From positions 1 to 5,601 of the IMG/VR virus record IMGVR_UViG_2606217110_000012: a stretch of DNA of 5,601 nucleotides; one strand, given 5' to 3'. A program made the translations under genes and the position numbers. This document shows, one piece after another, positions 149-1,546 of this stretch. This DNA comes from a virus (Duplodnaviria > Heunggongvirae > Uroviricota > Caudoviricetes). Position 1 is the first letter of the stretch, and the number at the start of each line of letters is the position of its first letter. The notes below the pieces were generated by a model. That model worked only from the letters and a program-made list of their open reading frames with translations. It did not search any database and had not been told where the DNA came from.

Positions 149-1198
149 TCAAACGATTAAATCCTGAACTTCCCTGACTGTCTGTTCAAAACGTCCGGTC
201 TCCAGCTCAACACCAATCGCACGACGCCCCAGTGCCATCGCCGCTTTTACCGTTGAACCTGAACCCATAAAAAAATCTGCAACCAGGTCTCCCGGACGAC
301 TGCTCGCGTTGATTATCTGCTGCAGCATTTCTGCCGGTTTTTCGCACGGATGTTTTCCTGGATAGTACTGCACCGGTTTATGCGTCCAGACATCGGTGTA
401 CGGAACCTGCGCCGTCACACCGAAATACCGCCGCAAATTTTTATATTCACTCAGCAGTTCCGTATACTGCCGGTTCAGCTCACTGTATGTGCTGACCAGC
501 TGGTGGTGTGGCTTTTCCAGTTCCCCGCGCTGATGTTTTTCTGCCGCAACACGCGCAAACAACGCCTGCAATTTATTGTAATCACCCTCGTTCGGTAACT
601 GCCACTGACTGGCACCAAACCAGTGCGAAGCCATGTTTTTCTTTCCGGTGGCTTCCGCTATCTGTTTTGACGTTATTCCCAGTGATTTACGCGCATCACG
701 AAAGTAAGAAATCAGCGGGGCCATGACGTGCTGTTTTAGCTCGCGCCCCTGTGCCACATAGCCATCATCTTTCGGGCGATACGGTCCCTGATAATGTTCT
801 GCAAACAGAATGCGCTCTGTTGCCGGAAAATACGCCCGCAGACTTTCCTTATTGCACCCGTTCCAGCGTCCGGACGGCTTCGCCCAGATAATGTGGTTCA
901 GCACATTAAAGCGCTCACGCATCATGATTTCGGTGTCAGATGCCAGGCGATGACCACAGAACAGGTAAAGACTTCCGGCAGGCTTCAGTACCCGCCAGAA
1001 CTGCGCCAGACACTGGTCCAGCCATTTCAGGTAATCATCGTCGCCCTCCCACTGGTTATCCCAGCCCTCGGGCTTCACTTTAAAGTATGGCGGGTCTGTG
1101 ACTATCAGATCGACAGAGTTTTCCGGTAAGGTCTGGATAAATTCCAGGCAATCAGCGTTGATTAACTCACAACTGGATATTTTTACAGTATTAATCAT
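149..1198 (-). CDS. Orphan DNA N6-adenine methyltransferase, beta-class (N6_N4 MTase family)
   Basis: 349-aa ORF. Motif IV DPPY near the N-terminus (residues 35-38), HPCEKP motif, and motif I FFMGSGST near the C-terminus give the beta-class order (IV before I). DPPY rather than SPPF/SPPY favours N6-adenine over N4-cytosine. A central HTH-like insertion (GITSKQIAEATG) is present. The ATG at 1198 is forced by an in-frame stop two codons upstream. No restriction endonuclease partner is visible in the window. Confidence 0.85.
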   Translation of the reverse strand: MINTVKISSCELINADCLEFIQTLPENSVDLIVTDPPYFKVKPEGWDNQWEGDDDYLKWLDQCLAQFWRVLKPAGSLYLFCGHRLASDTEIMMRERFNVLNHIIWAKPSGRWNGCNKESLRAYFPATERILFAEHYQGPYRPKDDGYVAQGRELKQHVMAPLISYFRDARKSLGITSKQIAEATGKKNMASHWFGASQWQLPNEGDYNKLQALFARVAAEKHQRGELEKPHHQLVSTYSELNRQYTELLSEYKNLRRYFGVTAQVPYTDVWTHKPVQYYPGKHPCEKPAEMLQQIINASSRPGDLVADFFMGSGSTVKAAMALGRRAIGVELETGRFEQTVREVQDLIV

Positions 1199-1232
1199 AG
1201 ATCAATAAGCACTTCTCTGATAGGCTCATACC

Positions 1233-1293
1233 GCTTTTGCGCAAAGCAGATGGGCCTGAGGTTTGCTTGTGACCCCAACGCATGAGCAGATGG
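1233..1293 (-). repeat. 9-bp direct repeat pair CCATCTGCT plus an overlapping near-perfect 15-bp palindrome in the MTase leader
   Basis: Minus-strand CCATCTGCT occurs at 1293..1285 and 1253..1245 (40-bp spacing). The second copy overlaps the palindrome GCTTTTGC|GCAAAGC at plus 1233..1247. Both lie in the 150-nt gap upstream of the MTase start. Confidence 0.5.
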
Positions 1294-1348
1294 CTGGCAG
1301 GTGCCGCTAACACCCACCAGCCGCCCATTACCACAAATTAAAAAACCT

Positions 1349-1546
1349 TCACTGAGGAAGGCGTCTGTAACAACCGAACTGATAATCTGCCAGACCCGCC
1401 ATAACAAGCTGAGTCAGTATTAACTGGCAGCGTTCGCGTGAAAGGTAAGTATTCTGCGCAATTTCCCCGACGGTCGCCGGTTCGGTGACGCTTAATTCAT
1501 TAAACACCACTCTGGCGGTTTCGGTCATATCCTGCTGTTTTAGCAT
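1349..1546 (-). CDS. Small hypothetical protein (about 65 aa) with winged-helix/HTH-like character
   Basis: ATG at 1546 is preceded by GGGAAAAAGGC; stop TGA at 1351..1349. The segment ATVGEIAQNTYLSRERCQLILTQLVMAGLA resembles a small winged-helix DNA-binding fold. The track's 94-aa version starts at a GTG (1633) without support. Family not recognised. Confidence 0.45.
   Translation of the reverse strand: MLKQQDMTETARVVFNELSVTEPATVGEIAQNTYLSRERCQLILTQLVMAGLADYQFGCYRRLPQ

Follow-up and report, generated by a model that had tools for sequence, protein, structure and literature searches.

How is translation initiated at a methyltransferase gene that has no Shine-Dalgarno (SD) sequence, and does an upstream open reading frame (ORF) take part in it? 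This question is raised by a stretch of 5,601 nt from a virus of the Caudoviricetes (IMG/VR record IMGVR_UViG_2606217110_000012, positions 1 to 5,601), the whole of which is referred to as the window. It encodes an N6-adenine methyltransferase (MTase), and the original prediction had proposed that a short ORF ending at the MTase start codon drives MTase translation by coupling and keeps expression low. In this study, comparison of related loci indicates that the approximately 135 nt before the MTase gene are a conserved noncoding RNA under selection, with a three-way junction (P1–P3) and the hairpins P4 and P5, whereas the proposed coupling was not borne out. This leader is an uncatalogued structured RNA, most likely of the cis-regulatory mRNA leader kind. 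Taken together, it seems rather probable that an M.EcoGII-type MTase is expressed from a late transcript dependent on the antiterminator Q, and that a leader acting in cis sets its SD-independent translation.

Conservation begins abruptly about 137 nt before the ATG (around position 1335 of the window), regardless of the sequence further upstream, and continues to the start codon. Mean pairwise identity is 0.78 in the leader, compared to 0.39 in the 200 nt upstream of it and 0.46 at the third positions of the coding sequence (CDS). In alignment A1, made with MAFFT from 35 leaders, the five-helix model (Fold 1; Table 1) was 92% paired, while slid partners gave 31–44%, and 11 pairs had changed on both sides, versus 4.4 ± 1.5 in shuffles. 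Alignment A4, in which 47 diverse leaders were fitted to a covariance model, gave double changes in 26 of 38 pairs (11.7 ± 1.9 expected, and none of 500 shuffles as high), and 91% of its cells pair, against 32–44% with slid partners. Compensatory changes are found in several helices. Thus P2 occurs as GGCUGGUGGGUG/CACCCGGCCAGCC and as GACUGUAAAAGUG/CACCUUUACAGUC, pair 57–85 of P3 occurs as CG (20), UA (9) or AU (6), and P4 appears as GCUUU/AAAGC, GCUG/CAGC or GCUCUG/CAGAGC. P1 is paired in 100% of the 47 sequences and almost invariant, with one G-C flip (UGGGG/CCCCA in Gilliamella) and three U.G variants; in divergent leaders P5 is replaced by GCCU/AGGC. The leader helices in A4 contain abundant G.U pairs, and because these are so many the structure is placed on the sense strand of the MTase gene.

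Two further features of the leader sequence were observed. The loop and stem of P4 (A1 columns 103–113; window 1244–1236) form DNA palindromes in several clades (TTTAGCGCTAAA, TTGTGCACAA, GCTGATGCGCATCAGC), and other clades have the plain tetraloops CUAA and CGAA. In addition, a direct repeat brackets the leader, with (C)UGUG(A/G)AAAU at the 5' edge (1335–1327) and ACUGUAAAAAU just past the AUG (1190–1180). The second copy precedes the likely AUG in Gilliamella (L080) instead of following it; this copy is therefore conserved as nucleotides and not as codons.

A covariance model built from A1 gave exactly one match per locus, always abutting the MTase start (82 and 80 sources), and the leader was never found away from this MTase family. 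Its conservation extends from Escherichia as far as Proteus, Morganella and Gilliamella. More divergent leaders were recovered with the covariance model in metagenomic loci; the divergent loci were obtained by re-ordering the protein alignment with Gilliamella first and by a metagenome scan. A scan of viral contigs yielded only E. coli relatives of 91–100% identity and added no diversity. Among complete E. coli genomes, 2709 of 5426 carry the leader, with up to 8 copies per genome. It is also present in 56 phage records, including SfV, mEp460, cdtI, phiP27, Stx2 phages, phiNP and Klebsiella phages, nearly all of which have nothing annotated under the leader; likewise, in almost every annotated record sampled no gene was called at this position. 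A scan of the whole window against Rfam 15 gave no match at 1199–1340 (E ≤ 1), and two scans focused on the leader gave only noise at E ≤ 10 (snoRNA and miRNA models, E 0.45–7.6). No description of the leader was found in literature searches, and two papers on M.EcoGII do not describe it (PMC5778455; PMC11551740).

The original prediction was right that the MTase ATG at 1198 has no SD. The best core anti-SD duplex at this start is -2.9 kcal/mol, compared to -5.3 to -10.6 for the other genes of the window. A hidden SD was considered as well and rejected: only UGAUC with the extended 16S tail reaches -5.3 kcal/mol, which is the window background (mean -4.8), and the GATC within it is not universal among leaders. 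Of 50 loci with a full leader, none reaches -5 kcal/mol or lower (mean -2.3). Leaderless homologues in Proteus hauseri, P. cibi and P. penneri have AAGGA at normal spacing, and GAGG is present in some Xenorhabdus MTase genes whose leader is reduced. Lack of an SD is, judging from these loci, a property of the leader element. The AUG itself is part of an A/U-rich stretch for which little pairing is predicted (probability of being unpaired 0.44–0.73 for AUG to +20). Over the initial 30 nt of the CDS, third-position identity is 0.83, versus 0.46 in the whole CDS, and ACU-GU and AGU in the first codons are nearly invariant, which fits a small hairpin, P6, inside the CDS. Covariation support for P6 was not obtained, as this helix hardly varies, and P6 is proposed from frozen synonymous sites alone.

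GATC stands directly before the ATG (1199–1204) in nearly all leaders of Enterobacteriaceae and Morganellaceae, and in some relatives it is also found in the P3 loop (AGAUCA; 1270–1275). Divergent leaders have AACCAUG or GACCAUG at the start. Since they lack GATC at this position, a role as Dam site seems unlikely. In eight Xenorhabdus loci (L041, L044, L045, L050, L051, L054, L065 and L067, about 10 nt before position 3001), codon 3 of the ancestral start is a stop (ATG GAA TAG), and two codons further on a GTG reopens the MTase frame. Some of the eight have an ORF from a GGUGA-AUG motif that ends at this GTG or overlaps it. This arrangement may be a lineage-specific restart or coupling, or the genes may be decaying.

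A second fold of the leader is probable, although not established. In this Fold 2, the 13 nt 5' of the AUG would be sequestered by a long-range pairing (Table 1). In single-sequence folding, Fold 2 is the minimum free energy (MFE) structure of the window leader (-61.5 kcal/mol, z = -3.4). RNAalifold on an independent MAFFT alignment likewise returned a partner exchange instead of the junction, with the pairings AUGGGC/GCUCAU, GGCCCAC/GUGAGCC and AGGUCA-C-AAGCG/CGCUU-AC-UGAUCU. These pairs are formed to 84–89%, compared to 28–43% in slid controls, and nine of them show double changes, versus 5.4 ± 1.4 in shuffles (8 of 500 shuffles reach nine). The compensatory changes comprise three in the Proteus/Morganella clade (GGA/UCC) and two in the clade of L172, L176 and L178 (GCCCGU/ACGAGC). 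In most leaders of Enterobacteriaceae, Fold 1, Fold 2 and the MFE lie within a few kcal/mol. Such an exchange would explain why the P1 strands are almost invariant, because each of them must satisfy two partners. A pseudoknot between the P3 loop (GGUCAC) and GUGAGCC was tried and rejected; its variants are uncompensated, and the pairings GGCCCAC/GUGAGCC and AGGUCA/UGAUCU fit better.

The MTase gene encodes 349 aa, and its ATG is the sole possible start because an in-frame TGA (1204–1202) lies two codons upstream; homologues begin at the same codon. The protein matches PF01555 with E = 1.2e-44 (153.3 bits, cut-off 26.7), residues 29–340 spanning positions 1–219 of the 221 of the profile. The full beta-class motif set that had been noted was confirmed: DPPY (residues 35–38) is N-terminal to the FxGxG motif (FFMGSGS, 309–315), with the target-recognition domain between them, and each half can be aligned with RsrI, CcrM and MboIIA, beta-class MTases of solved structure. 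A homology search, which had been suggested together with a search for the target motif, revealed that 319 of 350 residues (91%) are identical, over equal full length, to the M.EcoGII sequence given in Table S1 of PMC11551740, some of the mismatches being machine-reading errors in the supplement text. Identity to the homologue of phage 1720a-02, named as a close relative of M.EcoGII (PMC5778455), is 90%. The window MTase is an adenine MTase of the M.EcoGI/M.EcoGII family and thus of a kind already known. With M.EcoGII and M.EcoGI from a prophage of E. coli O104:H4 C227-11 (PMC5778455; PMC11551740) it shares the length of 349 aa, the beta-class order, the prophage location and the orphan state; the differences amount to about 9% of the residues, and a good many fall within the central domain (about 145–250).

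M.EcoGII methylates adenine in any DNA context and is therefore non-specific, it binds and methylates RNA in vitro, and its N6-methyladenine (m6A) blocks many restriction enzymes (PMC5778455). It is not expressed in the lysogen, and constitutive clones grow slowly and are unstable (PMC5778455). By its similarity, the window allele is probably non-specific too. As the characterised relative recognises no particular sequence, the search for a target motif that had been suggested loses its point. Next to the MTase gene, neither the window nor the related loci have a nuclease or restriction gene, so that the missing restriction partner holds beyond this locus. Its neighbours are a small winged helix-turn-helix (wHTH) ORF, a tRNA gene and a kinase/phosphatase pair; in relatives they are tRNA genes with stx, or lysis genes. 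The only nuclease-like gene of the window encodes the DUF968 protein, which has a weak HNH-nuclease match in its C-terminal part and does not adjoin the MTase gene. An anti-restriction role of the orphan MTase, as first suggested, is supported, because the 91% identical M.EcoGII is lysogen-silent and its non-specific m6A blocks many restriction enzymes.

The leader is most likely a cis-acting translational control element. In the proposed mechanism, the MTase would be transcribed only in the Q-antiterminated late transcript, downstream of PR'/tR' and two further terminator-like hairpins, as synteny suggests. Translation would start via neither an SD nor a coupled upstream ORF. Instead, the leader would form the three-way junction, then P4 and P5, leaving the AUG in a short A/U-rich single-stranded stretch followed by P6, and it would exchange partners between two folds. 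In Fold 1, the 13-nt stretch before the AUG would be held only by the weak local P5. In Fold 2, the 3' strand and loop of P3 would pair with the same 13 nt, which should hinder binding of the 30S subunit. The balance of the folds would then set or time the output of a host-harmful MTase. As trigger, autogenous feedback by the MTase is the preferred candidate, because the leader is confined to genes of this protein family and RNA is both bound and methylated by M.EcoGII in vitro. Possible other triggers would be another phage or host protein or a small ligand, or the element might simply be a constitutive leader of low translation.

Several points weigh against this mechanism. The function of the leader is deduced from position and anatomy only, and it is not obvious why an enzyme without specificity should need so elaborate an operator with conserved sequence. 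Fitting A4 to the model inflates the pairing of Fold 1, although the independent MAFFT result agrees in direction; P1 and P6 hardly vary, so covariation says little on either. Photorhabdus and Xenorhabdus retain only P2 and the 3' part of the leader, and therefore the junction is not indispensable. In Photorhabdus (L046–L048, L055 and L056, at about 2913–3000), the reduced leader consists of 5' flank, P2 and 3' part; since P3, the P1 3' strand and P4 are missing, the three-way junction is not universal. Fold 2 is based on fewer independent changes, mainly those of the Proteus/Morganella and L172/L176/L178 clades, and the leaders that diverge most (L163, L164, L024 and L080) do not show it clearly. 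Finally, part of the stretch from -13 to -6 is paired in both folds, and the predicted on/off contrast is therefore modest.

Table 1. Features of the window; all lie on the minus strand, and helix strands are given 5' to 3' on the MTase sense strand.
Feature	Position	Strand	Remarks
Structured 5' leader RNA	1199..1335	-	5' flank UGUGGUAAU, helices P1–P5, short single-stranded stretch before the AUG
P1	1327-1323 (UGGGC) with 1255-1251 (GCCCA)	-	closes the three-way junction holding P2 and P3
P2 hairpin	1322-1309 with 1305-1292	-	includes GTG 1317; 8/13 pairs changed on both sides; 94% paired
P3 hairpin	1290-1281 with 1271-1262	-	conserved GGUCA in loop; 8/8 pairs with double changes
P4 hairpin	1249-1243 with 1237-1231	-	core GCUUU/AAAGC; 5/5 pairs with double changes
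P5 hairpin	1229-1224 with 1210-1205	-	conserved CCUAUCA in loop; 4/7 pairs with double changes; 83% paired
Fold 2 long-range pairing (probable)	GGGUCA-C-AAGCA 1275-1264 with UGCUU-AU-UGAUCU 1211-1199	-	would sequester 13 nt before the AUG
Fold 2 companion helices (probable)	GGCCCAU 1256-1250/AUGAGCC 1229-1223; AUGGGC 1328-1323/GCUCAU 1287-1282	-	
SD-less A/U-rich initiation region	1172..1204, AUG 1198-1196	-	includes P6 hairpin in the CDS
P6, small hairpin inside the CDS	ACUG 1189-1186 with CAGU 1175-1172 (+10..+27)	-	ACUGU/ACAGU in most relatives
MTase CDS	149..1198	-	ORF list, PF01555, M.EcoGII identity
Upstream ORF, not a gene	1195..1407 (TTG 1407, 70 codons, or GTG 1317, to TGA 1195)	-	overlaps wHTH gene, terminator and RNA helices
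Terminator-like hairpin and T-run	1345..1362	-	spans the stop codon of the wHTH ORF, directly 5' of the leader; terminator scan
wHTH-like ORF	1349..1546	-	65 aa from ATG 1546; weak TrmB match; PHROG 331 (unknown function), E = 1.4e-37
PP2C phosphatase	2509-1766	-	
Ser/Thr protein kinase	module 1766-3345, kinase to 2506	-	likely start ATG 3270
PR'-like promoter and tR' terminator	3347..3435	-	directly after Q; TTGCAA-17-TACATT; terminator 3368-3347
Antiterminator Q	4110-3415	-	PF06323
RusA	4460-4101	-	
DUF968/HNH protein	5519-4473	-	upstream of rusA
tRNA, anticodon CAT	99-24	-	ARAGORN: tRNA-Met

It is tempting to speculate further that the leader is an undescribed bistable RNA switch under feedback control, in which conserved unpaired adenines of the leader and the initiation region are bound or m6A-methylated by the MTase itself, or in which the junction binds a small ligand such as S-adenosylmethionine (SAM) or S-adenosylhomocysteine (SAH). 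Such an event would flip the RNA between the junction fold and Fold 2, in which the 13 nt before the AUG are buried. We hold this only tentatively, with perhaps a small chance of being correct; if true, it would be a new class of regulatory RNA in the prophages of about half of the E. coli genomes. M.EcoGII is widely used, and its natural regulation is unexplained beyond silence in the lysogen and harm upon constitutive expression. The leader offers a concrete and testable control element that would replace the SD. It could thus serve as a compact model for SD-independent initiation governed by structure, and for the restraint by which a phage may keep a genome-wide DNA modifier in check.

Among the other explanations, the structure might have a role apart from initiation, either as a stability or processing module of the late transcript or as a trans-acting small RNA (sRNA) cut from it. 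A stable conserved structure indeed heads a mobile gene cassette with varying upstream context, and prophage regions of pathogenic E. coli are described as a source of regulatory sRNAs (PMC7547250). Nevertheless, neither a terminator nor a U-run separates the leader from the AUG, conservation is unbroken through the AUG into the first codons, the SD-less state goes with the presence of the leader, and the leader was never seen apart from the MTase gene, which makes such a role unlikely.

A metabolite riboswitch, in which SAM, SAH or another signal of cell state would gate MTase translation, was considered for three reasons. The three-way junction has near-invariant junction and P1 nucleotides, the two mutually exclusive and near-isoenergetic folds involve the region before the AUG, and the MTase presumably consumes much SAM. 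However, linkage to a single gene family is more typical of autoregulatory leaders that bind proteins, and no resemblance to an Rfam riboswitch was found at E ≤ 10. The junction is missing in Photorhabdus and Xenorhabdus, and why a late phage gene should respond to a metabolite is not apparent. We consider this decidedly unlikely.

Alternatively, the conserved block could act as DNA, namely as a promoter or operator of the MTase gene, with an extended -10 at its 5' edge or with binding sites for the wHTH protein. The 5' edge is TGTGAAAAT in most relatives, which resembles an extended -10; a comparable ACTGTAAAAAT is present after the ATG, and some P4 loops are palindromic. This promoter candidate was rejected: it is plausible in the consensus, but in the window clade the putative -10 has no A at -11 (TGTGGTAAT), a conserved -35 is absent, and upstream sequences are unrelated between loci. 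Compensatory changes keep intramolecular helices, in which G.U pairs are numerous and would become A.C on the opposite strand, and P4 loops vary freely (CUAA, CGAA, AGCGCA). The small wHTH gene does often lie directly upstream, about 150 nt from the MTase gene in about 55 of 80 related loci. Yet leaders without wHTH and wHTH without leader both exist: the gene is absent in many leader-bearing loci and present in the leaderless loci L076 and L081. The wHTH protein is likewise unlikely to be an obligatory partner, the linkage being frequent and not strict. A DNA element is thus quite improbable. The ORF list extends the wHTH ORF to 94 aa from GTG 1633; annotated relatives start at the ATG, giving 65 aa in phiP27. 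A profile search against the PDB returned weak generic wHTH matches only.

Coupling to an upstream ORF, the explanation given originally, would require that ribosomes terminating at TGA 1195, after a start at GTG 1317 or TTG 1407, reinitiate at the overlapping ATG and thereby keep expression low. The sequence facts behind it are correct, since the -1 frame is open to the TGA at 1197–1195, which overlaps the MTase ATG as ATGA, and GTG 1317 in this frame is preceded by GGGCGG (1326–1321). The same geometry was claimed elsewhere in the window; the ATGA overlap of kinase and phosphatase (2509–2506) is real, and that of rusA and Q is probably so. As comparison set, 80 loci of Enterobacterales were used, one per species, of which 44 share the leader type of the window. 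ATGA is found at the MTase start in 39 of these 44. Its frequency in the family stems only from codon 2, for which AAA is the usual choice; the start reads ATGG in phiP27 and ATGC in M.EcoGII-type genes. In 16 of the 44 loci, the frame contains no ATG, GTG or TTG between the preceding stop, which may be as near as -20 to -65, and the ATGA. The remaining loci would allow ORFs of 6–74 codons with differing starts. The other frame, from a conserved AUG at -130 ('MGGWWVL...'), has 3–45 codons and ends at many positions, so an ORF in either frame was discarded, with start, length, frame and stop all unconserved. Leader lengths vary by 1–2 nt between loci, which breaks the frame, most leaders have stops in every frame, and three-base periodicity is absent (identity 0.79/0.83/0.77 by position, versus 0.79/0.85/0.46 in the CDS). 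GGGCGG and GTG 1317, read as SD and start, are the 5' strands of P1 and P2 in the conserved RNA, whose helices covary. Furthermore, shuffling of the upstream 300 nt gave an ORF abutting ATGA of at least 41 codons in 7.8% and of at least 70 codons in 1.8% of cases. By these comparisons the upstream ORF is no more than expected by chance, and the coupling idea appears to be wrong, which leaves it a very small probability. For annotators and ORF-based scans, the open frames at this position would be by-products of a GC-rich RNA structure.

That the block has no function, its conservation reflecting recent horizontal spread of the cassette or a recombination linker between phage modules, is hardly credible, because even though lambdoid phages are mosaic and the cassette lies beside many different upstream genes, identity in the same loci is 78% in the leader against 46% at CDS third positions and 39% in the upstream flank, and leader substitutions are compensatory.

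We therefore return to the leader as a translational control element in a late transcript, for which the gene setting provides the context. The genes of the window are all encoded by the minus strand; together they represent the late-regulatory region of a lambdoid prophage. The PR'-like promoter after Q is followed about 60 nt further on by the strong terminator, and this region should give a short constitutive RNA comparable to the lambda 6S RNA or StxS. The kinase and phosphatase genes are inserted between tR' and the MTase cassette. This pair looks like a moron module, because the whole 5.6-kb arrangement is found in only 18 of 5426 E. coli genomes. A terminator-like hairpin follows the phosphatase gene (about 1697–1670), and the one spanning the wHTH stop codon has an equivalent in most related loci, a GC hairpin and T-run of differing sequence. 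The entire 5.6 kb is 99% identical to E. coli chromosomes, and the MTase region has 80–92% identity with phiP27, phage 1720a-02 and many Stx2 phages. The Q-like gene of phiP27 is followed by nuclease, small ORF, MTase, tRNAs, stx2e and lysis genes, and Q of mEp460 and SfV by terminator, small ORF, MTase and holin. Because of this gene order and established lambdoid biology, we infer that the MTase gene is among the first genes of the Q-dependent late operon. The tRNA gene downstream corresponds to one annotated as ileZ (tRNA-Ile) in Stx phages, and an Rfam 'Plastid-ycf2' match to the plus strand of the same bases is spurious.

The proposed arrangement can be compared to known systems. In its logic it would recall Mu com-mom, the rpsA leader and erm attenuation, with which it has neither sequence nor architecture in common. 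In phage Mu, the late and host-toxic adenine-modifying enzyme Mom is limited in translation by structure in its start region, which is relieved by the zinc-finger protein Com, and com overlaps mom. The window locus seems similar in that a temperate phage expresses a host-harmful adenine modifier late and has a small gene upstream. However, Com opens a single inhibitory hairpin, whereas the window leader is a multi-helix RNA of 135 nt, and the wHTH ORF is about 150 nt away and dispensable in many loci. The rpsA leader of E. coli has several hairpins and supports initiation in the absence of a canonical SD, and the RNA-binding protein that the gene encodes exerts autoregulation. Both would have in common a conserved 5' leader of several hairpins and the lack of a canonical SD; there is no similarity in sequence or structure, rpsA is a host housekeeping gene, and autoregulation in the phage leader is hypothetical. 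Three-way-junction riboswitch aptamers likewise have a near-invariant junction, a P1 3' strand with an alternative partner and a position in the 5' untranslated region beside the start codon, and the window leader differs in having no Rfam match at E ≤ 10 and in its linkage to one gene family. In ermC, alternative leader folds occlude the initiation region of an adenine N6-methyltransferase gene, and the enzyme exerts feedback via its own mRNA. The window MTase may thus resemble ermC as an adenine N6-methyltransferase under the control of alternative leader folds. In contrast, erm requires a translated leader peptide and a drug-stalled ribosome and its enzyme modifies rRNA, whereas the window leader has no conserved leader peptide and its MTase targets DNA.

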